DNA of 32,000 nt from Acaryochloris marina MBIC11017 (lineage in GTDB: Bacteria > Cyanobacteriota > Cyanobacteriia > Thermosynechococcales > Thermosynechococcaceae): positions 2,730,001 through 2,762,000 of the forward strand of contig NC_009925.1 of assembly GCF_000018105.1 (NCBI RefSeq), read 5' to 3'. Every line of letters starts with the position of its first letter. Positions within the stretch are counted from its first letter, which is position 1. Shown in pieces: positions 986 to 15,727 of this stretch. The notes beneath the pieces are model-generated. The model was not told the DNA's origin, searched no databases, and saw nothing but the letters and a program-made list of their open reading frames with translations. The translations under genes and the position numbers were made by a program.

Positions 986-1990
986 TCAATTCTCAGAATT
1001 GGATGCTTGGACAACTTCTCTAACCCGGTAGATGGGACGGCTTTGGGACTCATGGTAGGTTCGCATCAGCAGTTCAGCCAGGAGCCCGATGGAAAAAAGT
1101 TGAATTCCAGTCAATAGCAACACAGCAGATAAGATCAGCAAGGGACGATCTGCAATTCCTTCGTTGAGGCCGTACTTTAAAAATACTAAGTAGCCGCCTG
1201 TTAATACTCCTAACCCAGTAAAGGTAATCCCCAACAGTCCAAAGACATGCATAGGACGGGTTAAAAAGGTTTTCATAAAAGAGACGGTTAGCAAATCCAT
1301 GACGACCCGAAAGGTCCGATCCAGGCCATACTTACTTTGGCCAAATTGACGAGCATGATGGCGTACAGGCAGCTCTGCAATTCTGGCACCTTCAATAAAA
1401 GCTAATGCTGGTAAAAATCGGTGTAATTCTCCATACAGGTTCATATCAGCAATCAGCTCTGCTCGATAAGCCTTCAGAGAACAACCATAGTCGTTCAGCT
1501 TAACCCCTGTAATCCACCCAATCACCAAGTTAGCAATCTTAGATGGGAGCAGGCGCGTCAATGCGGCATCTTGTCGCTCTTTCCGCCAACCACTGACTAA
1601 ATCAAAGCCTTCACTCATTTTGGCCAGCAGTAGCGGAATATCGGCTGGCTCATTTTGCAAGTCACCATCCAGGGTGACAAAAATCTTACCTTGGGCATGG
1701 TTGAACCCTGCGGACATAGCCGCCGTTTGTCCATAATTTCGGCGCAACACAACTCCCCGTAGCTGGGGGTATAGATCCACCTGTTTCCTTAACAACTCGG
1801 TCGTACCATCCACCGAGCCATCATCGACACAAATGATTTCGTAGGATACATGCGTTTCATCCAGGGTATCTGAAATCCTACGAATGAGATGCTCCAGGCT
1901 TTCGACCTCATTATAGATGGGTATAATGACCGAGATTTCGGGCTGAGTGATCTTGGCTTTTTGGTCTTGCATTAGCATGGGTAATTTCAT
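986..1990 (-). CDS. GT2 family polyprenol-phosphate glycosyltransferase (GtrB/ArnC/Dpm1-like)
   Basis: VIIPIYNE and CVDDGSVDGT motifs, DXD-type LDGDLQN, and two C-terminal hydrophobic helices typical of this subfamily. Confidence 0.85.
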   Translation of the reverse strand: MKLPMLMQDQKAKITQPEISVIIPIYNEVESLEHLIRRISDTLDETHVSYEIICVDDGSVDGTTELLRKQVDLYPQLRGVVLRRNYGQTAAMSAGFNHAQGKIFVTLDGDLQNEPADIPLLLAKMSEGFDLVSGWRKERQDAALTRLLPSKIANLVIGWITGVKLNDYGCSLKAYRAELIADMNLYGELHRFLPALAFIEGARIAELPVRHHARQFGQSKYGLDRTFRVVMDLLTVSFMKTFLTRPMHVFGLLGITFTGLGVLTGGYLVFLKYGLNEGIADRPLLILSAVLLLTGIQLFSIGLLAELLMRTYHESQSRPIYRVREVVQASNSEN

Positions 1991-2255
1991 CTCACTCGCT
2001 ATTCATTAACTCACTTCAGAGGATTTCATTCAAGAAAACTGCCAAGAACGGTATTTAAAGCATTTTTTGCAACTTACCGACGAAGATAAAGCTCAAATAC
2101 CTTCTATAACTAACATTATTTAGGACCAATACTCGCCTCTTTTAGAAGGTAAACTTGGAAAGAATACTTGGGCACTCAATTTTTAATATCGCCAAAGAAC
2201 ATTGATTAAGGCCTTTTTACCTGAAGGCTTAACACCTTTCATCTTCGAGAACCGC

Positions 2256-2840
2256 ATGAGGATCCTACTCTTAGCTCCACATCCATTTTTCCAGACCCGT
2301 GGTACACCGATCGCAGTTGATCTTATGCTCAGAGTGCTATCAGAGCGGGGAGATCAGATTGACATGCTGACTTTTCCAGAAGGGGATGATGTCGTTTATG
2401 ACAACGTGCGGATCTACCGGACTCCCAAATTACCATTTATTAAAAATATCAGTCCAGGTTTTTCTGGGAAAAAACTGGTCTGTGATGGTTTTATGCTGAT
2501 TCAGGCTATTAACCTTTGCTGGAAGTATAAATATGATATCGTTCATTCGGTTGAAGAATCAGCTTTTATTGCGTTAGTGCTGAAAGTCGTGTTTAGAACA
2601 CCCTATATCTATGATATGGACTCATCCTTGGCACAGCAAATGATTGAGAAGTTTGCATTTCTCTCCTCTTTACGGTTTCTCTTCAATGCGTTTGAAAGAC
2701 TAGCCGTTCGACAAGCCAAAGTGGTGATACCCGTTTGCGAAACCTTATCTGAAGATATTCAAGTCTACCAACCGAAGAGAGTGGTTGTTTTACCAGACAT
2801 TTCGCTTTTAGATTACTCTGCCCCAAATAACAAGGCATAA
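2256..2840 (+). CDS. GT4 (GT-B fold) glycosyltransferase, N-terminal acceptor domain only
   Basis: MRILLLAPHPFFQTRGTPIAV is a typical GT4 N-domain start. The ORF ends at TAA 2838-2840 exactly where the interdomain linker is expected. The track start TTG 2202 is probably too far upstream. Confidence 0.7.
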   Translation: MRILLLAPHPFFQTRGTPIAVDLMLRVLSERGDQIDMLTFPEGDDVVYDNVRIYRTPKLPFIKNISPGFSGKKLVCDGFMLIQAINLCWKYKYDIVHSVEESAFIALVLKVVFRTPYIYDMDSSLAQQMIEKFAFLSSLRFLFNAFERLAVRQAKVVIPVCETLSEDIQVYQPKRVVVLPDISLLDYSAPNNKA

Positions 2841-2862
2841 CTGATGAACAGAATCATCTGCA

Positions 2863-3507
2863 GTGATGAAATATCACTCGGCCAATATGAATAATATCCC
2901 TGAAAATATCAGAGCGCACTGTCAGCCTGATGAGCTTATTCTAATGTACATTGGCAATTTAGAACTTTACCAGGGGATTGATTTGCTGCTGGATGGTTTT
3001 AAATCAGCTCAAAATCTCGCCCTGAAGGTTGCTTTAAAACTTGTCATTATTGGCGGCAAAGATGGCGACATTGCAAAATATAAGTTAAAAACGAAAAATA
3101 TTGGCATTGACCACCAAGTTTTATTTTTAGGGCAGCGCTCGGTCGAGAATCTCGGCCACTATCTTGCTCAAGCAGACATTCTGCTCTCCCCTCGCATTAA
3201 AGGGAGAAACACCCCAATGAAATTGTATTCTTACCTTGATAGCGGCAAGCCCGTCTTAGCCACAGATTTGCCAACACACAATTGGGTTCTGGATAAAGAG
3301 GTTGCGGTGTTAAGCGCGCCTAATCCCGAAGCGTTTGCTCAAGGAATCCTCTACCTCGCCAACAACCCTCAAGTTCGGCAAACTCTCGCCGTTGCCGCCA
3401 AGCATATGGTGCAAAAGCGGCACTCGTTTACGGCTTATAAGCAAAAATTGAATAGCTTATATGATTCATTACAGTTAGAGTTTAACAATGCTGCCTCACC
3501 TCGCTAA
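2863..3507 (+). CDS. GT4 (GT-B fold) glycosyltransferase, C-terminal donor-binding domain only
   Basis: LILMYIGNLELYQGIDLL, LVIIGG, and ADILLSPRIKGRNTPMKLYSYLDSGKPVLATDL (Glycos_transf_1-like). It is in a different frame from the upstream half. Confidence 0.7.
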   Translation: MMKYHSANMNNIPENIRAHCQPDELILMYIGNLELYQGIDLLLDGFKSAQNLALKVALKLVIIGGKDGDIAKYKLKTKNIGIDHQVLFLGQRSVENLGHYLAQADILLSPRIKGRNTPMKLYSYLDSGKPVLATDLPTHNWVLDKEVAVLSAPNPEAFAQGILYLANNPQVRQTLAVAAKHMVQKRHSFTAYKQKLNSLYDSLQLEFNNAASPR

Positions 3508-3550
3508 CATGCTCTACTTCCAGCCCCAGCGCTAGGATGCCACTGATTTT

Positions 3551-5260
3551 ATGAAACGAAATTTAGAGGAATTATCTAACACTAAATTTGACGTCCTCGT
3601 CATAGGCGGCGGCATTTATGGAGCTTGTGTCGCCTATGAAGCAACCTTAAGAGGCCTGTCCGTTGCATTAGTGGAAAAACAAGATTTTTGTGGGGCGACC
3701 TCCGCAAATAGTCTAAAAACCATCCACGGAGGCTTACGCTATCTACAGCATGCTGACTTTAAACGGATGCGCGAGTCTATCTACGAGCGGCGCACCTTAA
3801 TGAAAATTGCCCCTCACCTCATACATCCCTTGCCTGTATTGGTGCCCACCTACGGCCATGGATTGAAAGGCATAGAAGCGATGACGGTGGCCCTGAAAAT
3901 TAATGATTTAGTGAGTTGCGATCGCAACCTCGGCTTGCCCGATCCTCAAAAGCACATTCCGACGGGTCAAACCCTATCCCCCACAGAATGTCTCAACACC
4001 TTACCCGGTATCTCCGCCGATGGCTTAACAGGTGGTGCTATCTTTCACGATGCTCAGGTCTACAATTCTGAACGTTTGGTGCTTGCCTATTTACAGTCTG
4101 CCACTCAACTCGGATTACAAGCCGCCAACTATTTGGAAGTCACTGGTTTTTTACAAACTGGCTCTACCATTTGTGGCGTGCAAGTGACAGATGCTTTAAC
4201 AGCAGACACCTTTGATATTCAGGCTAAAGCGATCATTAATACCAGCGGCCCCTGGATTAATCAAGTCCTTGGACTCCTCAAGCCGCCTCTTACAAATCAT
4301 CAGCCCTTTGCATTAGCCATGAACTTGGTCACTCGATCGCTCTTTGATCATGACTACGCCATCGGCCTCTACAGCAAGGCTGACTACACAGATAAAGATG
4401 CCATTCTCAAGCGCAAGAATCGGTTACTCTTCATCGCACCTTGGCAAGGGTGTTCTCTCATAGGTACAACCTACTCCCACTACCCTGGAACTCCCGATCA
4501 GTTATCAGTACCCCAGAACGAAGTGCAACACTTGCTGGATGACATCAATAATGCCTATCCACCCGCAAACCTAACCCCTCAGGATGTGTATTGGGTACAT
4601 CAAGGTCTACTGCCCAGTAGCCACTCCCAAGAGACGACTAATGTCCAATTAACCAAGCATTACCACGTTCAGGATTATCAAAAAGAAGGTTTCAACGGCC
4701 TTATCTCCGTTACCGGAGTGAAGTATACAACTGCTAGACACGTCGCCATCCATGCCGTTGATACTGCAGTAGCCATGTTACAAAAGCCAGTTACACTCTC
4801 CCAATCGGCTCAACACCCCTTACAGGGTGGAGCGATTGAAAACCTCAGCGAATTCTTGCAACACGGACAAAAGCAACTAGACCACATCACTGATTGTCAG
4901 TCCGTCCAGCATTTTCTCTACAATTACGGCACAACCTATTCATCCGTTCTTAAACAGGTTCAGCACGGTCAACGGGCCACCTCACAACTAGATCTACTAC
5001 AAGCACAAGTCACCTATGCAATTGAAGAAGAAATGGCGCACACTCTAAGCGACGTTATCTTTAGACGCACGGGTATCGGTGGGGCCCAAATGCCAACCCC
5101 TGCAGAGTTGCAAACTTGCGCAGATGTTATGTCAAAGACCCTGCTGTGGAGTCAGTCTAGAGTAGAACAAGAAATCTCAGACGTGACATCTAGGTGGTCT
5201 TGGTCTATTCCTAAACCACCCTCAGTGGGAGAACAAACAGCAACTATTCAGGGAATATAG
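3551..5260 (+). CDS. FAD-dependent oxidoreductase, glycerol-3-phosphate dehydrogenase/oxidase (GlpD/GlpO)-like
   Basis: N-terminal FAD fold DVLVIGGGIYGACVAYEATLRGLSVALVEKQDF, then SANSLKTIHGGLRYL. The C-terminal FRRTGIG segment resembles the GlpD C-domain. Confidence 0.8.
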   Translation: MKRNLEELSNTKFDVLVIGGGIYGACVAYEATLRGLSVALVEKQDFCGATSANSLKTIHGGLRYLQHADFKRMRESIYERRTLMKIAPHLIHPLPVLVPTYGHGLKGIEAMTVALKINDLVSCDRNLGLPDPQKHIPTGQTLSPTECLNTLPGISADGLTGGAIFHDAQVYNSERLVLAYLQSATQLGLQAANYLEVTGFLQTGSTICGVQVTDALTADTFDIQAKAIINTSGPWINQVLGLLKPPLTNHQPFALAMNLVTRSLFDHDYAIGLYSKADYTDKDAILKRKNRLLFIAPWQGCSLIGTTYSHYPGTPDQLSVPQNEVQHLLDDINNAYPPANLTPQDVYWVHQGLLPSSHSQETTNVQLTKHYHVQDYQKEGFNGLISVTGVKYTTARHVAIHAVDTAVAMLQKPVTLSQSAQHPLQGGAIENLSEFLQHGQKQLDHITDCQSVQHFLYNYGTTYSSVLKQVQHGQRATSQLDLLQAQVTYAIEEEMAHTLSDVIFRRTGIGGAQMPTPAELQTCADVMSKTLLWSQSRVEQEISDVTSRWSWSIPKPPSVGEQTATIQGI

Positions 5261-5262
5261 CT

Positions 5263-5802
5263 ATGCCTTCTCCCATTGCTCACTCAGCAACCGCATATTT
5301 CCTATACAAAATCACACCTCAGAAAAATCGCTCTATAAAATTAGATCGACATCATTTTATTGATCTTGCCTACGTCATCGTCATTGGAAACATCGCTGAT
5401 TTAGACTTTATTCCGCATCTAATCTTAGAGGGAAGTTTTCACCGAGGTCCTTCCCATAGTCTCTGCATTGCCTTACTGATCAGTCTAGGCTGTAGCCTTA
5501 TTTTCAAATGGTTCCATAAATCAACCTTCCGACGATGGTTTTTACTCACGATTGGAATCTATGTCTCTCATCTTGTTCTAGATTTCTGGACAGCCGGAGG
5601 CTCTGGGATGCAATTACTCTGGCCTTTTACAGATGCTTTTATCAAATCGCCAATTGCTTTTTTCCCTAGTGTTAGGCATTCTGAAGGACTATTCTATCCA
5701 GGTCATATCTTCTTTATCACCTTTGAGACAATTTACAGTATCGTTCTACTGCTATTCATTAATCGATACCAAAAATATAAACGACCAAATCAAAATACTT
5801 AA
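5263..5802 (+). CDS. Membrane-bound metal-dependent hydrolase (DUF457/YdjM-like)
   Basis: N-terminal PSPIAHS, an HRGPSHS motif and several hydrophobic helices. It starts 3 nt after the preceding stop. Confidence 0.7.
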   Translation: MPSPIAHSATAYFLYKITPQKNRSIKLDRHHFIDLAYVIVIGNIADLDFIPHLILEGSFHRGPSHSLCIALLISLGCSLIFKWFHKSTFRRWFLLTIGIYVSHLVLDFWTAGGSGMQLLWPFTDAFIKSPIAFFPSVRHSEGLFYPGHIFFITFETIYSIVLLLFINRYQKYKRPNQNT

Positions 5803-5838
5803 ACCCTCAAAACAATATTGAAATCCAGATAGTCTCTA

Positions 5839-6690
5839 GTGAATATGCACGACTCACAACCATCCCTGATCTTTGTCGATGCCCATGTGCACCTGCATCA
5901 CTGTTTTGCCATACAAACAGTGCTCGATTCAGCATTACGGAATTTCCAAGATAATGTCTCAAACATGACGACCAACTTACAGCATCAACTTGGGGTTCTA
6001 GTCATCAATGAGATAGGACAACAGAATTCATTTGCACAATTACGAGCAGACGTATCTCACCAACAAGCGATCACCCTTAATGACTGGACCTTACAAGTCA
6101 CACCTGAACAAGAGTCACTAGTCGCTCAACATTCCACCGGTCAGCAAATTCTGCTTATTGTGGGCCGTCAAATCGTCACCAGCGAAAAGATCGAAGTCTT
6201 ATCACTCTTTTCAAGTACGACCATCCCTGAGCAGCAATCCTTAGAAAAAACACTACTCAATATACGTACGGCCGGGGGGTTAGCAGTCCTGCCTTGGGGA
6301 TTTGGTAAATGGTTTGGGAAACGAGGTAAGTTAGTTAATCAAGTGATCCAAGACAGGAATCCAACTGAGATTTTGATCGGCGACAACGGCAATCGGCCCG
6401 GTTTTTGGATTAATCCCGTGTATCTAAATAAAGCGAAAAAAAAGGGCATCAAGGTATTACCAGGGACAGATCCCTTACCTTTAGCCACAGAAGTACACCG
6501 TCCTGGAAGTTTCGGGTTCTATACTCAAGGGATAATTGAACCCAACCGTCCTGCAGCTTGTCTCAAGCAAATACTGATAGATCCAAACGCCAGTATTCAC
6601 CCCTATGGATCGCTGGAAACACCATTTCGCTTTATTAATAATCAAATTCAATTTAGACTGCAAAAGAAAAAAAGCAAAGCAGTTGAATAA
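5839..6690 (+). CDS. Hypothetical protein with an N-terminal HxH metal-site-like motif (FVDAHVHLHH)
   Basis: Long ORF in operon context. The HxH motif recalls amidohydrolase/PHP-type hydrolases, but I cannot assign a family. ATG 5845 is an alternative start. Confidence 0.55.
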   Translation: MNMHDSQPSLIFVDAHVHLHHCFAIQTVLDSALRNFQDNVSNMTTNLQHQLGVLVINEIGQQNSFAQLRADVSHQQAITLNDWTLQVTPEQESLVAQHSTGQQILLIVGRQIVTSEKIEVLSLFSSTTIPEQQSLEKTLLNIRTAGGLAVLPWGFGKWFGKRGKLVNQVIQDRNPTEILIGDNGNRPGFWINPVYLNKAKKKGIKVLPGTDPLPLATEVHRPGSFGFYTQGIIEPNRPAACLKQILIDPNASIHPYGSLETPFRFINNQIQFRLQKKKSKAVE

Positions 6691-6829
6691 TGGGGGCAAG
6701 CCCAAAAATTGTTGTACCTATAACGCCTGGAATAGCTGGACCGAATCCTTTCATTTAATCTCAAATAGCAACACACTAGATTGAACGTTAGCCCAAGAAA
6801 ATATCACGCTCTTTTACTCATTAATTAAG

Positions 6830-7561
6830 ATGCAACCGGAGAACAAATTTTTAGAAACAGCAGATATAGAAACATCTTCAGATGACTATGCTTCTCGTTT
6901 TCAAGGGCCAACTGGTGAGTGGCTACTACACATCCAAGAGCAAGCAACCCTTTCTATGCTGACTCAATATCCCAACGCCAGCATTTTAGATGTGGGTGGG
7001 GGACATGGGCAGCTCACCGAAGCCTTAATCAACAAAGGGTTTGCACTCACCGTTTTGGGTAGTAGCCTATCTTGCCAAAACCGTATCAAACCTTATATCG
7101 ACGCTGGACAATGCGAGTTCAAGGTTGGAGATGTTTTAAGCTTGCCGTATCCAGACAACACCTTCGACATTGTCGTTAGTTATCGATTTCTAGCACATGT
7201 GAACCAATGGCAAGCGTTCTTATCTGAGCTAGGACGTGTTGCCAAAACAGCCGTGCTTGTCGATTACCCCACGACTCGTAGCATCAACTACTTATCACCG
7301 CTATTATTCAAATTCAAAAAAGGTGTAGAGGGCAATACTCGGCAATTCATTTGTTACCAAGAGAAAGAGTTATTAGACTTTTGCAGCAGCATTGGGTTAG
7401 AGAAGGACAATCGTCATCCACAATTTTTTTGGCCGATGGTGCTACATCGAATGTTGAAGCAACCTAAAGTTTCAGAACTTTTAGAGAATCCTGTGAAGAA
7501 GCTCGGTTTAACTTACATATGGGGCTCTCCAGTGATTACCAGATTTCATAAAGTGCATTAA
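6830..7561 (+). CDS. Class I SAM-dependent methyltransferase
   Basis: Motif I ILDVGGGHGQL and a post-I acidic/hydrophobic pattern FDIVVSYRFLAH. Confidence 0.8.
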   Translation: MQPENKFLETADIETSSDDYASRFQGPTGEWLLHIQEQATLSMLTQYPNASILDVGGGHGQLTEALINKGFALTVLGSSLSCQNRIKPYIDAGQCEFKVGDVLSLPYPDNTFDIVVSYRFLAHVNQWQAFLSELGRVAKTAVLVDYPTTRSINYLSPLLFKFKKGVEGNTRQFICYQEKELLDFCSSIGLEKDNRHPQFFWPMVLHRMLKQPKVSELLENPVKKLGLTYIWGSPVITRFHKVH

Positions 7562-7619
7562 TCTATTGATGACTCAATTTCATCATTAATCTAACTATCA
7601 ACATCTATATCACTACTGT

Positions 7620-8654
7620 ATGTCTTCAACAACAGCTACCGAGAACACCATTAGTCCTGGTCAACGTGTTTTAGTAACTGGAGCAACTGGCTATACAGGC
7701 AGCACCTTAGTCCAAAAACTGCTAAACCAGAATGTCGAGGTTGTTGCAATAGCTCGTCCATCCTCTGATTTAAGCCGTTGGCAAGATGCGCCCATTCGAT
7801 GGATTCAAGGAGATGTTTTTGATCCAAAGCTCATTCAGGAGGCGATGGAAGGAGTGAACTATATATTTCATATGGTCACCCCATTTCGGGAAGCAAAGTC
7901 ATCTGATGATGTTTATTACAATGTCCATGTTAAAAGTACACAGTTACTAGCGAACGAAGCCTTGAAGCAACCCGACTTCAAGCGCTTTGTTCATATCTCG
8001 ACAATCGGAGTTCATGGACATATCGAAAATCCTCCTGCTGATGAGACCTATAGAACTTCTCCTGGAGATTTATACCAATCCACCAAATTAGAAGGTGAAA
8101 TATGGATCAAGCAATTTGGTGCGGAAACTGGGCTCCCCATAACCATCATTAGACCTGCAGGCATTATCGGTCCTGGCGAAAAGAGACTGCTAAAAATCTA
8201 CAAGATGGTTTGTTCTGGTTTAGTACCTGCCATTGGTAATGGAGGCAACCTACTGCATTTAATTCACGTTGATGATTTGACCAACTGTTTTTTACTAGCA
8301 TCCCAACATCCAAATGCAGTGAATGAAATCTTCATCTGTGGAAATCAAGACTCGATTTCTTTCAAAGAAATGGTCAATCTCATCTCCAAGTACTACCAGA
8401 AAAAAGCCACACTTCTACAACTCCCTTCCGCCCCCTTATTTCTTCTGGGAGATATTCTTGAGTTTGTTTGTAAACCTTTAAATATCGAGCCTCCCATATA
8501 CCGGAGAAGACTTGCCTTTTACACCAAAGATCGGTCATTCAATGTTAACAAGCTTAAATCAAAACTAGGGTTTGTTCCCCAGCATTCAAATGAGCAGTGT
8601 ATTACTGAATTGGCACAGTGGTATTTAGAAGAAGGATGGACAAACATTAGCTAA
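7620..8654 (+). CDS. NAD(P)-dependent epimerase/dehydratase (extended SDR)
   Basis: Rossmann motif VTGATGYTGS, catalytic YQSTK (YxxxK), and a length of about 340 aa. Confidence 0.85.
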   Translation: MSSTTATENTISPGQRVLVTGATGYTGSTLVQKLLNQNVEVVAIARPSSDLSRWQDAPIRWIQGDVFDPKLIQEAMEGVNYIFHMVTPFREAKSSDDVYYNVHVKSTQLLANEALKQPDFKRFVHISTIGVHGHIENPPADETYRTSPGDLYQSTKLEGEIWIKQFGAETGLPITIIRPAGIIGPGEKRLLKIYKMVCSGLVPAIGNGGNLLHLIHVDDLTNCFLLASQHPNAVNEIFICGNQDSISFKEMVNLISKYYQKKATLLQLPSAPLFLLGDILEFVCKPLNIEPPIYRRRLAFYTKDRSFNVNKLKSKLGFVPQHSNEQCITELAQWYLEEGWTNIS

Positions 8655-8752
8655 TTTATACGAGTAGATAAAATTTACTGTTAGAGGTGACATTACGAAA
8701 CTATAATTCTTAGGTATCAATCTAATTAATGTAACACAATATTGTTCTAGTG

Positions 8753-10606
8753 ATGTTAGATGCTGACTTAAAGTCTCAACTCAGAGAAGCTCAAACTCAG
8801 ACTGATATTTTTAAAATATTGAAGCAAGTGAACTCTACAGACTTGTCAAGCTCAGATTACTTTTTTATTAGTAGAACTCTGAACAAAACAAATGTAGAAT
8901 CTAGCCTCAAAATTGCGTACTTCTCAAATTATACAATTGCTCCTCTGCCATCTTTCATTGAAGTACAGAGCGCTTTTCATACTATTGGTGTTAGGAGTTA
9001 TGTCGGAGAGTACAATCAGCATTATCAGGAAATTCTGAATCCAACTTCATCAGCACTAAGTTTCAAGCCAGATATCGCATTCTTATTATTATCACTGCAT
9101 GAATTATGCCCTACCCTACTCAATAGTTTTACCAGTCTGACCGATCAGCACAAACTAGATCAAAAAAATGTCATTCTTGAGCATATAGTGGACTGGGTAA
9201 ATCTCACTGTAGAGAAAACGAACGCTACAGTTTTTGTCAGTAATTTCTTACAACCGACCTTTCCATCTTTAGGAATTGCAGATAGTCAACAAGGCTATAG
9301 CGAAAATGAGTTTTATATTGAGCTCAACTTGGCATTACAAAAGAAATTTAGAGAAAACCCTAGGGTATACATTTTTGACATTGATAAGTTAGCCGCTAGA
9401 TATGGTAAGGAAGGTGCCATCAATCCAAAAATGTTTTTCATGGCTAAAGTTATTTGGCATGAAAAGTTTTTACCCACAATTGCTCAAGAATTTATTCGAT
9501 ATATCACTAGTTTCTTGGGTCAAACTAAAAAATGCTTGGTATTAGATCTCGATAATACGTTATGGGGAGGAGTGATTGGTGAGGATGGCATAGATGGTTT
9601 AAAGGTTGGAACAGGTGATCCAGTGAGTGAAGCTTATCTTGCTTTCCAATATAAGATTGCTGCCTTAAAAAACCGAGGCGTCATTCTGGGTATCTGCAGT
9701 AAGAACAATCAGGCCGATGCTCTAGAGGTTTTTGACAAGAAAGTCGACATGCCACTCAAACTCACTGATTTCTCAGCAAGTGAGATTAATTGGGAGCCTA
9801 AATATATCAATATTAAAAATATTGCCAAAAAGCTCAATATAGGGACCGAAAGCATACTTTTTATTGACGATAATCCTGTGGAATGCAGTCTGGTTTCTCA
9901 AGCACTACCTGAAGTCACAACGGTTCAACTACCAGCTGACCCAGCACTTTATGCAACTATTCTGGATAATATCCTTGTATTTGAGAAGTTTAATGTCCTC
10001 AGCGATGATCGCAATAAGGCACAGCAATATTCACAAAATGAGCAACGTCAAGAAGAAAAAGAAAGAATTGGAGACCTCAATACCTATCTTCATAGCTTAG
10101 AGACGAAAATTAAAATCCGCTTAGCTACGGATCAAGACTTACCGAGGGTCCATCAGCTGTTTTCGAAAACAAATCAATTCAACCTAACGACCATTCGTTA
10201 CTCAATGTCCGATATTGAGGATTTCCACAAGAATGAGCAAGATTCGATTATAGTTATCTCTGTTCAAGATAAATTTGGCGACTTGGGTACTGTAGGATTA
10301 TGCCTGCTCAAAAATCAAGAGCATCAACTTGTCATTGACAGTTTTATTTTGAGCTGTCGAGCCATGGGACGTGGGGTTGAAACAGCGTTGCTCAACTATG
10401 TCAAGCGTGAGTATCTATCTGGCCATCCTTCGTTGAAGCTGATTGGCTCTTATATTCCAACTAACAAGAATATGCCAACTAAAGACTTTTTTGAAGCACA
10501 AGGATTGACCCTGATCACTGAAAATAGTAGTGGTGAAAGGTATTATGAGATGCTTTCTGATGATGCATTAGAAATCCCTTGTCCCTGGATTAACGTTATT
10601 GATTAG
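8753..10606 (+). CDS. FkbH-like HAD-IIIC family protein (phosphatase/acyl-loading enzyme)
   Basis: HAD motif I LVLDLDNTLWGGVIGEDG, later FIDDNP, and a C-terminal LSCRAMGRGVE with the conserved Cys typical of FkbH-type enzymes. The track start is GTG 8750. Confidence 0.85.
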   Translation: MLDADLKSQLREAQTQTDIFKILKQVNSTDLSSSDYFFISRTLNKTNVESSLKIAYFSNYTIAPLPSFIEVQSAFHTIGVRSYVGEYNQHYQEILNPTSSALSFKPDIAFLLLSLHELCPTLLNSFTSLTDQHKLDQKNVILEHIVDWVNLTVEKTNATVFVSNFLQPTFPSLGIADSQQGYSENEFYIELNLALQKKFRENPRVYIFDIDKLAARYGKEGAINPKMFFMAKVIWHEKFLPTIAQEFIRYITSFLGQTKKCLVLDLDNTLWGGVIGEDGIDGLKVGTGDPVSEAYLAFQYKIAALKNRGVILGICSKNNQADALEVFDKKVDMPLKLTDFSASEINWEPKYINIKNIAKKLNIGTESILFIDDNPVECSLVSQALPEVTTVQLPADPALYATILDNILVFEKFNVLSDDRNKAQQYSQNEQRQEEKERIGDLNTYLHSLETKIKIRLATDQDLPRVHQLFSKTNQFNLTTIRYSMSDIEDFHKNEQDSIIVISVQDKFGDLGTVGLCLLKNQEHQLVIDSFILSCRAMGRGVETALLNYVKREYLSGHPSLKLIGSYIPTNKNMPTKDFFEAQGLTLITENSSGERYYEMLSDDALEIPCPWINVID

Positions 10607-10618
10607 GATTAATAAGTT

Positions 10619-10858
10619 ATGGCTGAAAATGGTGTCCAAGATAGAGTCAAGCTAGTTTTTTCTGACATTTTAGACATCGATCTTCAAACAATTTCAGATG
10701 ATCTTGGCCCTGATAACTGTGACAGTTGGGATTCTATGAATAATTTACGACTCATTACCGCTTTAGAAGAGGAATTTAGCATTAGCTTTTCCATGGAAGA
10801 AATCTCATCAATGGTCGATATAAGCCGGGTATTCGAGCTAATTGAGAGCAAAAGCTAG
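10619..10858 (+). CDS. Acyl carrier protein
   Basis: 79 aa and acidic, with the Ser attachment context DSWDSMNNLRLITALEEEF. It starts 12 nt after the FkbH-like stop. Confidence 0.8.
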   Translation: MAENGVQDRVKLVFSDILDIDLQTISDDLGPDNCDSWDSMNNLRLITALEEEFSISFSMEEISSMVDISRVFELIESKS

Positions 10859-10920
10859 ATTAACCCAGCATTAACCTTAGAATTGACCAATATATAAATA
10901 TCTTCAAGGAATATGCTTAA

Positions 10921-11448
10921 ATGAAAGCGAGTAAAATTGTTCGTAGATTTTTAGTTCCGTCACCTGTTATCACGCTATTTTATCTGGTTAAGTCTGGCGC
11001 AAAAATCAGCCCGAAAGCTGAGGTTGAGCTCAGCTCCTTTTTTACAATTGGTCGCCAATCGGTAATAAGTTCATTTACCAAGATTAAAGCATCTGAAGGA
11101 CCATTGAAGATTGGTTCAAATGTTTCTATTTCAACAGGATGCTTTATCAGTTCACATACGGGTGGACTTGAAATTGGTGATTACTGCTTAATTGGTCCAA
11201 ATGTAACCATAGTAGGTAATAATTATAACTATAGTAAAATTGATGTTCCCTTAGAACAACAAGGAATCATATCTAAGGGAATTAAGATTGGTAAGAATGT
11301 TTGGCTAGGTGCGGGGGTATGTGTTCTCGATGGAGCCACAATCGAAGATAATTGTATTATCACTCCTAATTCAGTTGTCTCATCCAATATTCCCGCTGGT
11401 GCGATCGCAAGTGGGCAACCAGCTAAGGTTATTTTTAAGCGTAGGTAG
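10921..11448 (+). CDS. Hexapeptide-repeat (left-handed beta-helix) acyl/acetyltransferase
   Basis: Repeating [LIV]G patterns: IGDYCLIGPNVTIVG, IKIGKNVWLGAGVCVLDGATIEDNCII. Confidence 0.85.
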   Translation: MKASKIVRRFLVPSPVITLFYLVKSGAKISPKAEVELSSFFTIGRQSVISSFTKIKASEGPLKIGSNVSISTGCFISSHTGGLEIGDYCLIGPNVTIVGNNYNYSKIDVPLEQQGIISKGIKIGKNVWLGAGVCVLDGATIEDNCIITPNSVVSSNIPAGAIASGQPAKVIFKRR

Positions 11449-11631
11449 TTTTCTAAAGAGAAGTTGCTGATTTATTTATTAAATCTATCTTCATTTCTAT
11501 TATTTTTTATGCGATATTATAGTTCTCATGTTAGTGATAATAAACCAGGAAGTTATTTAAACAAAGCATCATTAAAATCCACTAAATATGAATAATTAAC
11601 ATCAAGTTTCTTTGTTCTCTAAGCTTTAAAT

Positions 11632-12629
11632 ATGTGCTCATCTAGCATAAAAAATACTAGTCCTATTTTTATCTTCGGATCTGCACGGTCAGGGACGTCT
11701 TTACTGAGTCGGATTATTAATTCTCATCCTAGGATTTCAGTTCCATTTGAATCTCATTTATACGACACTTTCTATCCCTGGCTTAAGTATTATGGCGATT
11801 TGAATCTCTCTAAAAATCGAGAACGCTTAGTCGATGATATTTTAAGTATTGAATGTATGAGAGACTGGAGTCCAAGACCTGATCGAGAATGTGTTTTAGC
11901 AGAAATTTCACAAAATAACTTTGCTGGGATCGTAGATGGATTAATTCGATCATGGTCAATCAGCCAGGGAAAAAAAGATGGGGGGAAAAAACACCAGCCC
12001 ATGCTTTCTTTTGGCGTGAGATTTTGAGTGACTTTCCCAAGTGCAAGATTATTCATATTGTACGCGATGGTCGTGACTCATCCTTGTCATTAAAAAATGC
12101 TCGTTTTGGCCCTAAGCATTATTATCATTTAGCAAAAGCATGGGTTAAATATTTAAAAGTTATTGAAGCCTTAAAATCTGAAGTCAGTCGTGACTCTTTT
12201 TACGAGGTACGTTACGAAGACTTATTGTCTAATACTGACCATAAGTCTAGAGAAATATGCGATTTTATTGAGGAAGATTTTTCTGAAGAAATGCTCAGTT
12301 TTTATACTAATAGAAATCCATATCCAACTGATAAAGACAATCTTAGAAATCTAGCAAAGCCCATCATATCTAGCAATTCCAATAAATGGAAGAGTAGTAT
12401 GTCTCCTCGCGATCTGAGGATCTTTGAGTCAGTTGCTGGTCCTTACTTAGAGGCATATGGCTATGAAACAGTCATGAGTCATCCTAACATCTCCTCTATC
12501 GAGGAGGTATTAATTAAGTATTTTGAGCATCCTCCTAAGAAGATTTTATCTATGATCAAGAATAGAAAAGGCCATATTGATGGCTTGCGTAGGCTAGCCA
12601 TTTATACTCGTCTTGTTATTACTCAATAG
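11632..12629 (+). pseudogene. Sulfotransferase family protein in two overlapping frames (11632-12027 and 11952-12629); needs a -1 shift at the A7 run 11970-11976
   Basis: The 5'-PSB loop FGSARSGTS is in ORF1. RWGEKTP and the 3'-PB-like HIVRDGRDSSLS are in ORF2. My codon-by-codon reading shows that a -1 slip on GGA AAA AAA G gives a continuous SQGKKRWGEKTPAH. Confidence 0.8.
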
Positions 12630-12702
12630 TGTTATGCCCTTCATAAATCACGATTGAGTTATTGAAACATTGAATTTTTAAAATATATGCTAAATAACAA
12701 GC

Positions 12703-14199
12703 ATGAGTAAGTTCGTTAAGGGCGCTGGTATTTCATTTATTGGGCAACTTGGAAGCACTGGCTTAAAATATCTCACCCAAGTCACTCTAGCCTGGATTTT
12801 TGGAGCTGAAGTGTTTGGTTTATACACACTGGGGCTCGTTTTTTATCAATTTTGCGACTTGTTCGCCCGATTAGGCTTGGAGTTTGGGGCTGTACGTTAT
12901 GTTGCTATTAGCACGACTGCCGAAAGTCGACCCAAGTTAAAGGGGGTATTACTGACCGTACTGGGTCTCCCGTTTATGTTCGGGTGTGTTCTTGGAGGCA
13001 TGCTCTTTTATTCCTCTAGTTTGATTGCCACCGATATTTTCCAAAAACCAGCCTTAGCTGTTGTTCTACAAGTATTTTCACTCGCTATCCCTGTTGGAGC
13101 CAGCATGACTACAGGATCGTTTGCAACAACAGGGTTTCAAACGACTTTATATAGAGTCTTGGTATTTGACTTAATTGTACCCTTCACCAATCTACTCTTC
13201 GCTACTTGCTTAGGGTTAATCGGGTTCAGACTCTTTGGAGCATCTTTAGCTTGGTTAATCGCATTAATAGTGGGTTTAATACTGATCTTTTATTTTATTT
13301 ATAATCTGTTCCCAGATATAACTTCAAGCAAAGTAAAGCCCGCCTTTAACCTAAAAGAAATTATCAGTTTTTCTTTACCATTATCTTTTGGGACATTTGT
13401 TTGGCTACTCTTAATTTGGACTGATATTTTGATGCTGGGCTACTATAACAGTGCATCAGCAGTTGGGATTTATCGAGCTGCTTCACAAACTGCTTTTTTG
13501 ATGATCCTGTTTGATCGTTCTCTTATTACAATTTTTGCTCCTACAATTGCAAATCTATTTAACCAAGAAAAGTTATCAGAGGCTAATCAACTCTATAAAA
13601 CCTCTACTCGTTGGAATTTTATCCTAACTTTTCCGCTGTTTATTATACTCACCATTTCTAGCCAACATATACTCAAAATTTATGGTTCTGATTTTCAAGC
13701 TGCATGGATTATTCTAATTATCTTGGCGACTGGACAATTAACAAGATCAGGGGGCGGCGGCGTATGCATGCATATGTTAGCCATGTCCGGACATCAATAC
13801 TTAAAGCTATATGGTGATATTGCTTTAGCCATTACCAACATTACGCTTAATTTTTTGCTTATTCCCCTGTGGGGACCGCTAGGAGCATCGATCGCTACTG
13901 CATCTAGTATGGCTGGAATTAATTTGGTACGTGTGATTCAAGTCAAGTATGTTTTAGGAGTTTATCCATATTCGCTGCGTGATTTCAAAATCATCATTTG
14001 CGGTGTAGTTACTGCTATATCTGGTTACTTAATCCAGTATTTTTTGCATGATATTTCTTATTTACTGATAATTGCAATATCTGCACTTATTATGATATTT
14101 ATATATACTTCTATGCTATTTCTTACAGCGCTGAATGAAGATGATAAGCGACTTATCAATCAGTATAAAGTTAAGATTAATAAATTCATAAAAGCTTAA
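12703..14199 (+). CDS. wzx: MOP-superfamily polysaccharide flippase (Wzx-like)
   Basis: About 500 aa and highly hydrophobic, with around 12-14 predicted helices and a typical N-terminal GQLGSTGLKYLTQVTLAWIFG. Confidence 0.8.
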   Translation: MSKFVKGAGISFIGQLGSTGLKYLTQVTLAWIFGAEVFGLYTLGLVFYQFCDLFARLGLEFGAVRYVAISTTAESRPKLKGVLLTVLGLPFMFGCVLGGMLFYSSSLIATDIFQKPALAVVLQVFSLAIPVGASMTTGSFATTGFQTTLYRVLVFDLIVPFTNLLFATCLGLIGFRLFGASLAWLIALIVGLILIFYFIYNLFPDITSSKVKPAFNLKEIISFSLPLSFGTFVWLLLIWTDILMLGYYNSASAVGIYRAASQTAFLMILFDRSLITIFAPTIANLFNQEKLSEANQLYKTSTRWNFILTFPLFIILTISSQHILKIYGSDFQAAWIILIILATGQLTRSGGGGVCMHMLAMSGHQYLKLYGDIALAITNITLNFLLIPLWGPLGASIATASSMAGINLVRVIQVKYVLGVYPYSLRDFKIIICGVVTAISGYLIQYFLHDISYLLIIAISALIMIFIYTSMLFLTALNEDDKRLINQYKVKINKFIKA

Positions 14200-14667: not shown

Positions 14668-15234
14668 TTATTGAGTGACCTTTATAGTCAAAGCATCCAA
14701 GATATAAGAATATCCCGTTAGAGAAGCCACCACCTTCTGGGAGAGGGTATTGATATGCTCAAATAAAGCGGTCTCCAGTGCCCCAATAGAATCAAAGTTT
14801 TTGCCTTTGAAAGGCTTTCTTAGGTCCTGCCATAATCGCTCTGCCGGATTGAGTTCTGGACTATGAGACGGCTGTACAATCGGCAACACATTCTCAGGCC
14901 ATCGAACCCAAGTCGCCATATGGGCTGCGGCTTGATCTATTTGCATCAGATTGAGACTCTGGGGAAACGCCAAGCTGAATTGCTCCAGGAAGCGCTCAAA
15001 ACAAACACTATCGAGATGAGAAAACCGATAGAAGAAACTGTCTCCTGTGAGAGGTTCGACAGCGCCATAGAGCCAGAAAGCCTCTCGGGGCCACTGTACC
15101 GTCACCACAGGTTTGACACCCCGCAACGTTAGAACCCGACCCGTGAGTGTCTTGAGTCCCCAGCGGCTTTCATCCATGCACCAGTAGCGCACTGGGTGTC
15201 CTTGGGCAAAATAGCGGGTCATTACCTCAATCAC
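14668..15234 (-). CDS. IS630 transposase, DDE catalytic part (orfB)
   Basis: WCMDESRWGL carries the first Asp, NLMQIDQAAAH follows, and the LNPAERLWQDLRK signature is present. It is in the +1 frame relative to orfA, and the junction sits at TATTAAAAAAC. Confidence 0.85.
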   Translation of the reverse strand: MIEVMTRYFAQGHPVRYWCMDESRWGLKTLTGRVLTLRGVKPVVTVQWPREAFWLYGAVEPLTGDSFFYRFSHLDSVCFERFLEQFSLAFPQSLNLMQIDQAAAHMATWVRWPENVLPIVQPSHSPELNPAERLWQDLRKPFKGKNFDSIGALETALFEHINTLSQKVVASLTGYSYILDALTIKVTQ

Positions 15235-15247
15235 ACGAGGAAGTTTT

Positions 15248-15727
15248 TTAATAGGCTTGTTGTTGAGCTTCCTCTGTCTTGCGTGAGCGAGGTCGAGGAA
15301 CTTTGAGCTTGGCTTTGAGCCGATAATGCACGGTTTGATGAACCGTTTTGTAGGGTACGTCTAATCCACACTCATCTAAAAGCCATTGTTGAATCGCCCC
15401 GTAGCTCTCAAAGCCCCTGGGGTCAGCTAGACGAGCTTTCAGCTTTTCGAGGACCTCTCCACCAATCATGGGGGGCTTCCCAGGAGAGGTAGGAATCTCC
15501 AGCATTGCCTGTAATCCCCCTGATTTATAGAGTTTGATCCAGCGATACACCGTGGATTCCCCTCGTCCGGTCAGGGTTGCCAACTCCATGCGAGTGGTGA
15601 CTTGACCACTTTTGAGCCAGTAGAGGGCTTGCAAGCGTTCTTTGCGACGACCGGAGGATTGTTGACGTAATAAACGTTTGAGTGTGTCTTCACTTTCACA
15701 GATATCAATTCGTAAGGGTCTGGGCAT
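15248..15727 (-). CDS. IS630 transposase, N-terminal HTH part (orfA)
   Basis: Winged-helix/HTH pattern TRMELATLTGRGESTVYRWIKLYKSGG. Confidence 0.85.
   Translation of the reverse strand: MPRPLRIDICESEDTLKRLLRQQSSGRRKERLQALYWLKSGQVTTRMELATLTGRGESTVYRWIKLYKSGGLQAMLEIPTSPGKPPMIGGEVLEKLKARLADPRGFESYGAIQQWLLDECGLDVPYKTVHQTVHYRLKAKLKVPRPRSRKTEEAQQQAY

Follow-up and report, generated by a model that had tools for sequence, protein, structure and literature searches.

The gene string at 3551-11448, which lies in a Wzx-type polysaccharide locus of Acaryochloris, splits at 8654/8750 into two separable cassettes, probably for glycan tailoring. The window, that is, the whole stretch of DNA analysed, covers 32,000 nucleotides, and its relevant features are collected in Table 1. 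Cassette A (2202-8654) comprises a split GT4 glycosyltransferase, a GlpD-like flavoenzyme, YdjM, a 283-aa PHP-like protein, a methyltransferase and an extended SDR, and cassette B (8750-11448) comprises an FkbH-like protein, an acyl carrier protein (ACP) and a 175-aa left-handed beta-helix (LbH) acyltransferase. We consider it rather likely that the two act as independent tailoring units that have come to lie next to each other in a Wzx-dependent locus, with a GT2/GT4 scaffold in common. Gene content, cassette separability and residue changes are observations, and the chemistry of each step is what we infer.

A sequence-only reading had described this string as one operon combining FkbH, ACP, FAD oxidoreductase, SDR and methyltransferase genes, and as an echo of the methoxymalonyl-ACP (fkbGHIJK) pathway with parts of other folds. 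Every gene that it named was found complete and in + orientation, and profile matches confirmed the DAO/DAO_C flavoenzyme, the extended SDR and the Methyltransf_11 type of methyltransferase, none of them of the fkb kind. Its gene list was incomplete, because YdjM, the 283-aa ORF and a frame-broken sulfotransferase had been omitted. The genes from the GlpD-like one to the acyltransferase are co-directional with an intergenic spacing of 2-139 bp, but scans for promoters and terminators gave nothing exceeding shuffled sequence, so that the string is no more than a plausible operon. No gene for a PKS, as had been noted before, and none for an acyl-CoA dehydrogenase or a 3-hydroxyacyl-CoA dehydrogenase was found in the window.

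Table 1. Features of the polysaccharide locus, with positions in the window.
Feature	Position	Strand	Evidence and placement
GT2 glycosyltransferase	986..1990	-	Glycos_transf_2 9.7e-30; shared scaffold of the locus
GT4 glycosyltransferase, two ORFs	2202..3507	+	Glyco_transf_4 and Glycos_transf_1 matches
GlpD-derived FAD flavoenzyme	3551..5260	+	DAO 1.5e-39 and DAO_C 3.4e-20; cassette A
YdjM/DUF457 membrane metal-hydrolase-like protein	5263..5802	+	PF04307 1.4e-17; cassette A, optional
PHP-fold protein, 283 aa	5839..6690	+	Fold match; N-terminal DxHxH motif; cassette A core
Class-I SAM methyltransferase	6830..7561	+	Methyltransf_11 7.8e-14, also Methyltransf_25/23; cassette A, optional
Extended SDR oxidoreductase	7620..8654	+	Epimerase 1.3e-33; cassette A
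FkbH-domain loader	8750..10606	+	TIGR01686 301.5 bits (cut-off 146.65); FkbH_N 2.6e-10; cassette B
Stand-alone acyl carrier protein	10619..10858	+	Weak PP-binding/ACP HMM matches below cut-offs; WDSM motif; cassette B
LbH O-acyltransferase, 175 aa	10921..11448	+	Hexapep 4.7e-17; cassette B
Sulfotransferase, two overlapping frames	11632..12629	+	Sulfotransfer_3 matches on both ORFs; downstream neighbour
Wzx-type flippase	12703..14199	+	Polysacc_synt 1.2e-22

The order GT4, GlpD-like, YdjM, PHP-like, SDR, FkbH, ACP and LbH, with a facultative methyltransferase before the SDR, recurs in Acaryochloris-like contigs, Okeania and Calothrix, and the same set was found in different orders in a Thioalkalispiraceae MAG, an Acidobacteriota MAG and a 2.4-Mb contig. 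Genes of A and B adjoin each other in eight loci or more, and these represent at least three phyla. Wherever both cassettes occur, they neighbour one another without exception and run in one direction, which makes it likely that one passes something on to the other: B may, for instance, acylate the residue that A builds. The redox enzymes of such loci could also have gained a second substrate. The expected co-occurrence with FkbH and ACP is seen in several phyla, but each cassette also stands without the other, which by the earlier reading's own standard tells against a single pathway. The GlpD-like/PHP-like/methyltransferase/SDR module lacks FkbH and ACP in 27 other sampled loci, namely two metagenome contigs (L092 and L093), the cyanobacterial genomes L094-L098 and all 20 sampled acidobacterial loci, the last as judged from fetched stretches of 5-20 kb, some ending at contig ends. 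In these 20 loci the PHP-like gene is accompanied by the SDR in 19, by GT4 in 14 and by the GlpD-like gene in 13. A genome-wide search for FkbH domains in five cassette-A cyanobacterial genomes (99-100% complete) gave zero matches, and the identical search in the Acaryochloris genome gave two. Conversely, cassette B occurs without A in four loci (L007, L011, L013 and L015). On a tree of the GlpD-like enzymes, obtained by a quick search and containing long branches, FkbH-positive and FkbH-negative loci are interleaved, the FkbH-positive ones not being a clade, and at least four changes are forced by well-supported branches. At the 8654/8750 boundary itself GC falls from 0.42-0.48 to 0.37-0.39, and identity to L004 is 94-100% for cassette A versus 83% for FkbH and 79% for LbH.

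The glycosyltransferases are shared more widely. Elsewhere, orthologues of GT2 (43-100% identity) are neighbours of cassette A and of the trio with FkbH, and those of GT4 occur with both cassettes, including with cassette B alone. GT4, the first in cassette A, is encoded by separate ORFs for its N domain (2202-2840) and C domain (2863-3507), and is likewise split in L004, L005, L009 and L094, while L006 (447 aa) and L095 (428 aa) have it as one fused protein.

These distributions bear on the serial carrier-bound route that the sequence-only reading had proposed, in which glyceryl-ACP made by FkbH would be oxidised by the SDR and the GlpD-like enzyme to hydroxymalonyl(tartronyl)-ACP, methylated to methoxymalonyl-ACP and passed by LbH to the polysaccharide, in convergence with fkbGHIJK. 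The cofactor set does equal the NAD dehydrogenase, FAD dehydrogenase and O-methyltransferase of the established pathway (PMC7489565, PMC3679948), and, as in the FK520 cluster and Mad11-15 of tetromadurin, the FkbH loader and its dedicated stand-alone ACP have a flavoenzyme, an NAD(P) enzyme and a SAM methyltransferase as neighbours. However, enzymes of the FkbK (3-hydroxyacyl-CoA dehydrogenase), FkbI (acyl-CoA dehydrogenase) and FkbG (methyltransferase) types are missing here, as is the PKS. The conservation of the redox and methyltransferase genes in genomes without FkbH and ACP indicates that those of Acaryochloris are not dedicated to a carrier-bound acyl group, and because the set also occurs in bacteria without the carrier system, we do not read the string as a re-invented methoxymalonyl pathway. 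The methyltransferase, moreover, is optional; it is missing from the L005 string, present in the FkbH-free L092, L095-L097, L101 and L109, and fused to the PHP-like protein in another FkbH-free locus (P0139). The route would also leave YdjM and the PHP-like protein without a role, and the GlpD/DAO family is known to oxidise secondary alcohols or amines, but not an aldehyde to an acid. For these reasons we regard it as highly improbable. The earlier interpretation is partly supported overall: its glycerate-type acyl substituent on a polysaccharide fits the tight conservation of the FkbH, ACP and hexapeptide acyltransferase trio in PKS-free polysaccharide loci, and its caveat that the SDR and methyltransferase may act on sugars lies closer to the evidence than the ACP route.

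The flavoenzyme shares with GlpD/GlpO (PDB 2QCU, 3DA1 and 2RGH) the DAO and DAO_C domains, the FAD-binding motif, HGGLRY (E. coli H50 and R54) and K354, whereas its score of 250.9 bits against the NCBIfam GlpD equivalog is under the cut-off of 360. E. coli GlpD H233, R317 and R332, which we take to bind glycerol-3-phosphate, are kept in all solved GlpD/GlpO and in the housekeeping GlpD encoded by a separate Acaryochloris gene (L090). In contrast, H233 is replaced by Asn, R317 by Leu or Thr and R332 by variable residues in seven of the seven FkbH-linked orthologues, and the changes span the whole glycan-locus clade. Judging from these residues, the enzyme is probably not a glycerol-3-phosphate dehydrogenase. 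Its substrate could instead be glyceryl-ACP, oxidised at C2 to hydroxypyruvoyl-ACP and re-reduced by the SDR to the opposite enantiomer to give an L-glyceroyl substituent. GlpD acts on a three-carbon polyol by oxidising it at its C2 hydroxyl, glyceryl-ACP resembles glycerol-3-phosphate, a phosphate-free substrate would agree with the missing R317 and R332, and an FAD oxidase with an SDR reductase follows the classic two-step logic of epimerisation. Nevertheless, the pair is kept where FkbH and ACP are absent and its role there cannot involve glyceryl-ACP, so that we find this variant very unlikely.

In the two-cassette explanation that we prefer, cassette A would add a residue and then remodel it at the membrane. 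The residue would lose a phosphoester, have a hydroxyl oxidised by the FAD enzyme and re-reduced with NAD(P)H, and optionally be O-methylated. Such remodelling is probable, and its logic is functionally analogous to that of DprE1/DprE2, the decaprenylphosphoryl-ribose 2'-epimerase that works with an upstream transferase and a phosphatase on the mycobacterial arabinan precursor. Cassette A would share with it the succession of a transferase, a phosphoesterase, FAD-dependent hydroxyl oxidation and SDR-type reduction, all directed at a glycan precursor bound to the membrane, but the proteins are unrelated, as DprE1 has a VAO-type fold and not a GlpD-derived one, and the phosphatase is of PAP2 type where PHP-fold and YdjM proteins are found here. 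The PHP-like protein has 2364 cluster representatives and no match in Pfam or NCBIfam. Foldseek with its AF2 model (pLDDT 94.8) gave PsfC (7RTY), the PHP phosphoesterase TM0559 (2ANU), EndoQ and RNase AM as top matches (TM 0.45-0.63), and D14, H16, H18, Q111, R162, R186 and D211 are invariant, retaining the usual PHP metal-ligand set only in part. That it may be a phosphatase is our guess from the modelled fold, whose match is modest (TM about 0.5-0.6). YdjM, an integral membrane protein, is found in cyanobacterial copies of cassette A, missing in L008, L012 and L016, and occurs in one of the 20 acidobacterial loci (L109, weak match). The SDR has TGxxGxxG, S127 and Y152xxxK156 invariant; its best NCBIfam match is HpnA-like (136 bits, under the cut-off) and its best PDB match a putative oxidoreductase (3WJ7).

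Separability would also agree with cassettes that are functionally unrelated neighbours serving different repeat-unit residues, with A working on a cytoplasmic nucleotide sugar or small-molecule acceptor and not on a membrane-bound intermediate. The extended SDR class includes nucleotide-sugar epimerases and dehydratases, and the best solved relative of GT4, at a weak 34 bits, is MshA, which glycosylates a phosphorylated polyol before a phosphatase trims the product. But an LbH acyltransferase directly follows the SDR in cyanobacterial loci with or without FkbH, pointing to a common target, and besides the membrane location of YdjM, GlpD relatives are monotopic membrane enzymes. We therefore think that unrelated neighbours are unlikely.

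Cassette B most likely esterifies glycerate onto a sugar. Judging by homology with FkbH/OzmB-type loaders, the FkbH-like enzyme would remove the phosphate of 1,3-bisphosphoglycerate and place the glyceryl group on the dedicated ACP, from which LbH would transfer glycerate as an ester to a sugar hydroxyl. OzmB and RkE/RkF are such FkbH/ACP loaders of oxazolomycin and tetronate pathways. The protein has an N domain, a HAD-IIIC phosphatase domain and a C-terminal transferase domain, and its HAD motifs (D265xD267xT, S316/K317, K350 and D372D373) and C535 are invariant across 20 homologues; the sole solved relative, 3SLR, is uncharacterised. The ACP is kept 12-60 bp 3' of FkbH in most related loci, its WDSM serine aligns with the DSL motif of ACPs, and PPTases are encoded in the Acaryochloris genome. 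The best PDB matches of LbH are maltose and galactoside O-acetyltransferases. Its 175-aa orthologues (47-80% identity) occur only next to a close FkbH subfamily, and because loci free of FkbH and ACP have in this slot a plain acetyltransferase from its family (266 aa, core 44% identical), cassette B looks like an acetyl-to-glyceroyl swap. Acyl-CoA is the normal donor of such enzymes, and the use of acyl-ACP is suggested here by gene linkage only. In Okeania and Calothrix a MaoC-dehydratase/ketoreductase fusion, a usual kind of enzyme in ACP chemistry, sits between ACP and LbH and appears to modify the ACP-bound acyl group.

The tetromadurin loader Mad7/Mad8 (PMC7489565), like those of other tetronates and oxazolomycin, resembles cassette B in the FkbH-like protein of about 620 aa, the intact HAD motifs, the conserved cysteine in the C-terminal domain, the adjacent ACP and the expected product, glyceryl-S-ACP from 1,3-bisphosphoglycerate. 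It differs in the consumer, a FabH-like tetronate synthase or a PKS there and a small O-acyltransferase in a Wzx locus here. An FkbH-domain gene, cj1302, also lies in the flagellin glycosylation locus of Campylobacter jejuni, whose glycans bear dimethylglyceric acid, a glycerate-derived acyl group (PMC7099621), on pseudaminic acids. This likeness is one of gene context; the organism, the glycan (nonulosonic acid) and the partners differ, and the role of cj1302 is itself putative. In T. forsythia, the gene behind the N-glyceroyl group of its glycan has been called 'elusive' (PMC6120980).

Between the hexapeptide acyltransferase and the flippase, the frame of the sulfotransferase is broken at an A-run near 11968-11976, whereas its L005 orthologue (332 aa, 74% identical) is unbroken.

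The window is Acaryochloris DNA (G000 contig 1, 2,730,001-2,762,000). The gene string that begins with the split GT4 gene consists of 14 co-directional ORFs (2202-14199), the products of 12 genes, two of which are each read as two ORFs, and the gaps between genes in the part first noted (3551-11448) are 2-139 bp. Domain search recovered all the components that the sequence-only reading had named (FkbH, ACP, flavoenzyme, SDR, methyltransferase, hexapeptide acyltransferase and flippase) and bore out its remark that no polyketide synthase (PKS) is present, as none was detected on any window ORF; an acyl-CoA dehydrogenase or a 3-hydroxyacyl-CoA dehydrogenase was likewise found on none of them. Two members of the string, the YdjM protein and the 283-aa ORF, had been missed. 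Downstream of the first Wzx gene lie an IS630-like element, a second GT4, a CE4 deacetylase and a second Wzx. Promoter and terminator scans gave results at or below shuffled expectation and did not inform the operon structure.

Features of the gene string and the divergent gene upstream of it (window positions)
Feature	Position	Evidence or remark
GT2 glycosyltransferase	986-1990	divergent, upstream of string
GT4 glycosyltransferase, two ORFs	2202-2840 and 2863-3507	
GlpD-like flavoenzyme	3551-5260	DAO (PF01266) 1.5e-39 + DAO_C (PF16901) 3.4e-20
YdjM/DUF457 membrane protein	5263-5802	
283-aa PHP-like ORF without family	5839-6690	
Class-I methyltransferase	6830-7561	Methyltransf_11/25/23
Extended SDR	7620-8654	
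FkbH-domain protein	8750-10606	TIGR01686 301.5 bits vs cut-off 146.65
79-aa ACP	10619-10858	WDSM serine motif
175-aa hexapeptide acyltransferase	10921-11448	Hexapep 4.7e-17
Frame-broken sulfotransferase	11632-12629	
Wzx flippase	12703-14199	

In the methoxymalonyl-ACP route, the primary alcohol is oxidised twice, by NAD- and FAD-dependent dehydrogenases, and the product is then methylated (PMC7489565, PMC3679948). The string had been proposed to form one pathway of this kind by convergence, in which glyceryl-ACP loaded by FkbH is oxidised by the SDR and the GlpD-like enzyme and then methylated. The FkbH-domain glyceryl loader and a stand-alone ACP (FkbJ) are indeed common to fkbGHIJK and the window. 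However, the FkbK-type and FkbI-type dehydrogenases are not in the window, where the candidates for their place are the extended SDR and the GlpD-like DAO enzyme, the methyltransferase does not qualify as a dedicated FkbG-type O-methyltransferase, and the PKS that consumes the product of fkbGHIJK is missing.

The conservation of the string was determined by tblastn of all window proteins against 80 loci, one genome per species, together with look-ups of homologue contigs. In the close FkbH subfamily (at least 38% identity), the ACP follows FkbH, the next gene in most informative loci is closely orthologous (47-80%) to the 175-aa left-handed beta-helix acyltransferase (LbH), and a GT4 orthologue is usually located 5′ of FkbH. 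The GlpD-like, PHP-like and SDR genes, and sometimes the methyltransferase gene, accompany close FkbH in two Acaryochloris-like loci (L004, L005), in Okeania (L006) and in Calothrix (L009, L024), and they are also found with FkbH in a 2.4-Mb contig (L008) and a Thioalkalispiraceae MAG (L012). In an Acidobacteriota MAG (L016) the same genes are downstream of FkbH, not upstream, and in a Pseudomonadales fragment (L017) they are probably with FkbH. They are absent from the Thermoanaerobaculia loci L007 and L011, Geminicoccaceae L013 and Steroidobacteraceae L015. The flanks of L007 and L013 are readable on both sides, and both loci carry the complete FkbH-ACP-LbH trio without them; the L011 contig ends just downstream of FkbH, and in L015 the ACP and the sole LbH, a distant one (31% identity), are upstream of FkbH. 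The distant FkbH relatives (31-37%) retain the ACP and none of the other string genes.

The reverse situation was also found. The PHP-like protein occurs in 7 of 401 cyanobacterial genomes, and in five of these (L094-L098) the order is GT4, GlpD-like, in some YdjM, PHP-like, in some the methyltransferase, and SDR. The gene immediately after the SDR encodes a 266-aa hexapeptide acetyltransferase, and FkbH and ACP are absent. No FkbH-domain match was obtained genome-wide in these five genomes (99-100% complete), and the same search gave two in the window's genome; the latter and L099, which is interrupted by a contig end, are the remaining two of the seven. In Acidobacteriota, the PHP-like protein occurs in 25 of 401 genomes. 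FkbH and ACP were absent within the fetched stretches of all 20 acidobacterial loci, where the PHP-like gene is accompanied by SDR (19/20), GT4 (14/20) and GlpD-like (13/20) genes. Another locus, that of the fusion protein P0139, has the order GlpD-like, YdjM, PHP-like-methyltransferase, SDR and LbH, again with no FkbH or ACP, and a further PHP-like homologue lies between an SDR and a DAO gene with nothing else related nearby. The GlpD-like proteins were also placed on a quick maximum-likelihood tree, which has long branches. FkbH-linked and FkbH-free loci are interleaved on it, and its well-supported branches require the FkbH state to have changed at least four times.

The proposal of a single pathway is thus borne out only as far as SDR and GlpD-like genes do co-occur with FkbH and ACP in some loci, but the same module exists in loci and genomes that have neither, and the idea that its redox enzymes are dedicated to carrier-bound glycerate fails on the five FkbH-free genomes and the 27 FkbH-free loci in which the redox module was found. 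Because the module is conserved without FkbH and ACP, glyceryl-ACP cannot be the ancestral or general substrate of its redox genes, and the evidence does not support one methoxymalonyl-like pathway. In Okeania (L006:12449-14071) and Calothrix (L009:12122-13747, also L024), a MaoC dehydratase fused to a short-chain ketoreductase (540 aa) is located between ACP and LbH, and the carrier-bound acyl group is evidently modified there by this fusion. In PKS loading modules, enzymes of this type turn glyceryl-ACP into lactyl-ACP, and the insert suggests a lactyl decoration in place of a glyceryl one. On the basis of the separability of the module and this carrier-modifying insert, we interpret the string as a pair of cassettes that share a GT2/GT4 scaffold: cassette A (2202-8654), from the split GT4 to the SDR, and cassette B (8750-11448), composed of FkbH, ACP and LbH. 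The separability and the sequence features are observations, and the chemistry of both cassettes is what we infer.

Other marks of the seam at 8654/8750 are a step in GC content and a drop in identity to L004, the closest relative. GC per gene is 0.42-0.48 in cassette A (0.39 for YdjM) and 0.37-0.39 from FkbH on, and the identity to L004 is 94-100% for cassette A proteins, 83% for FkbH and 79% for LbH. The identity to L005 is mosaic in another way (SDR 37%, PHP-like 48%, LbH 80%).

As for cassette B, the FkbH-like protein has the HAD-IIIC DxDxT core and the C-terminal domain with a conserved cysteine of FkbH/OzmB-type glyceryl-ACP synthases. D265xD267xT269, S316/K317, K350 and D372D373 are all invariant among 20 homologues, as is C535 in the family-specific C-terminal domain, presumably the catalytic cysteine as in OzmB. 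The family of about 620-aa proteins has at least 7996 matches, and the only solved relative of the FkbH-like protein is the uncharacterised Bacteroides protein 3SLR. The ACP ORF, which begins 12 bp 3′ of FkbH, has a DSM serine motif, scores under the cut-offs of ACP models and is kept after FkbH in most related loci. The 175-aa LbH has the hexapeptide-repeat beta-helix of the ~180-aa maltose/galactoside O-acetyltransferases, and these are its closest structures in the PDB (3SRT, 1KQA-type), a kinship that points to esterification of a sugar hydroxyl. [quoted passage not shown] An N-terminal ACP-like domain considered for the 266-aa enzyme was supported by no model and was dropped. We also considered a non-dephosphorylating FkbH, whose 3-phosphoglyceryl-ACP would mimic glycerol-3-phosphate for the GlpD-like enzyme, and rejected it because the HAD phosphatase motifs are all intact and cassette A occurs without FkbH.

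The window's genome has a second FkbH (L003, G000:C1:3662000-3681999, at approximately 11177-12967, minus strand), 34% identical and with its own ACP. It is in a polysaccharide locus with a DegT aminotransferase, Wzx, an Antibiotic_NAT-fold acyltransferase, a methyltransferase, and glyoxalase-fold and DUF7033/WbmS-like proteins, and looks like an N-acyl (amino-sugar) counterpart of what is proposed for cassette B.

Turning to cassette A, the flavoenzyme shares the DAO + DAO_C architecture of GlpD/GlpO, but its score in the GlpD equivalog model NF008899 is 250.9 bits, under the cut-off of 360. In the alignment of seven FkbH-linked orthologues, H233 (E. coli GlpD numbering) is replaced by Asn and R317 by Leu or Thr, and R332 is variable, in all seven, while H50, R54 and K354 are retained. 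The three changed residues, which presumably line the substrate/phosphate pocket of GlpD/GlpO, are retained in the housekeeping GlpD of the window's genome (L090) and in 2QCU, 3DA1 and 2RGH. The flavoenzyme appears to be a clear case of a core-metabolism enzyme (GlpD) recruited to glycan tailoring.

The 283-aa protein was placed by predicted fold only. Its predicted structure (pLDDT 94.8) is a PHP-like barrel that matches PsfC, the Thermotoga PHP phosphoesterase TM0559, EndoQ and RNase AM (TM 0.45-0.63), and a language-model atlas puts it near PHP clusters. No Pfam model, including PHP, matched any of 47 members of the family, and a PDB sequence search with the protein gave no match. D14, H16, H18 and D211 are invariant in the alignment, with just two histidines among the invariant residues. 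The protein has 2364 cluster representatives. P0139 (L092:1724-3319), in an FkbH-free copy of cassette A, is a natural fusion of the PHP-like protein with a Methyltransf_11 domain. The window methyltransferase matches only the generic Methyltransf_11/25/23 models and is absent from the L005 string.

In the SDR, the TGxxGxxG motif, the Ser and the YxxxK motif are all intact. Arg after the second beta-strand is typical of NADP(H)-using SDRs and Asp of NAD(H) users; at this position (residues 44-48), most orthologues have Arg, and L008 and L016 have Asp. Two SDR sequence types, with about 60% and 35% identity to the window SDR, are mixed among otherwise alike loci.

Most plausibly, cassette A adds and remodels a residue. 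After addition of the residue, a phosphoester would be removed by the PHP-like and YdjM proteins, the repurposed GlpD would oxidise and the SDR would then reduce, with methylation as an optional step. A comparable series is the conversion of decaprenyl-phosphoribose to the arabinose form by a transferase, a phosphatase, DprE1 and DprE2, where the DprE pair acts on a polyprenyl-phospho-sugar. The resemblance would be in logic, not in proteins, as DprE1 is a VAO-fold FAD oxidase and the window flavoenzyme has the DAO/GlpD fold; cassette A may work like this system and is not a member of it. We tentatively offer, as one possibility, that cassette A is a previously undescribed system for membrane-associated glycan remodelling that uses a GlpD repurposed away from glycerol-3-phosphate together with an SDR, a methyltransferase and a new family of PHP-fold proteins, in a DprE1/DprE2-like redox reaction on a lipid-linked or polymer-bound residue, and that cassette B is a plug-in that replaces an acetyltransferase and performs ACP-dependent O-glyceroylation of the same residue.

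Glycerate-type acyl groups are found on bacterial surface glycans: Tannerella has an N-glyceroyl pseudaminic acid, and Campylobacter has pseudaminic acids with dimethylglyceric acid. The flagellin glycosylation locus of C. jejuni, whose glycans bear dimethylglyceric acid, holds the FkbH-domain gene cj1302 (PMC7099621), and the gene responsible for N-glyceroylation in the Tannerella glycan has been called elusive (PMC6120980). In open-access text, we found FkbH-polysaccharide literature without biochemistry and no paper characterising either cassette. The FkbH-ACP-acyltransferase trio is a candidate glyceroylation route that recurs in polysaccharide loci of many bacterial phyla; related FkbH-ACP pairs occur in archaea as well. 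In the window the trio occupies the slot of an ordinary acetyltransferase. Parting it from the redox/methyl cassette avoids a wrong annotation as a methoxymalonate or tartronate ester. What is new is a known loader in a glycan-tailoring role, together with a second, uncharacterised neighbour module, conserved across hundreds to thousands of genomes. If the tentative reading of remodelling by cassette A and a plug-in cassette B is right, bacteria would use cassette swaps to vary one position of a surface polymer combinatorially, in its acyl group (acetyl, glyceroyl or lactyl) and in the presence or absence of a methyl group and of epimerisation.

Several other features of the locus were observed. 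The N-domain and C-domain ORFs of GT4 are 22 bp apart in the window, and the split, unusual as a conserved feature of a GT-B enzyme, is kept in L004, L005, L009 and L094; the gene is fused in Okeania (L006:2149-3492, 447 aa) and another cyanobacterium (L095:6431-7717, 428 aa). Two overlapping frames make up the sulfotransferase, and they break at an A-run (gggaaaaaaaagatggggggaaaaaa, approximately 11968-11990). The break may reflect a sequencing error, a pseudogene or a slippage site; in L005 the orthologue is a single intact gene of 332 aa, with 74% identity over the C-terminal part. The IS630-like transposase (14668-15727, minus strand; two ORFs, HTH domains and then DDE_3), with a GC of 0.50, follows the first Wzx and precedes the second GT4 within the low-GC half of the locus. 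At the corresponding place, L004 has neither the sulfotransferase nor the first Wzx nor the IS. The locus has two Wzx-type flippases, the second at 19760-21286. Finally, a gene with an RGL11_C (rhamnogalacturonan-lyase-like) domain (21402-22844, minus strand), also present in L004 and L006, may encode a polymer-trimming enzyme.
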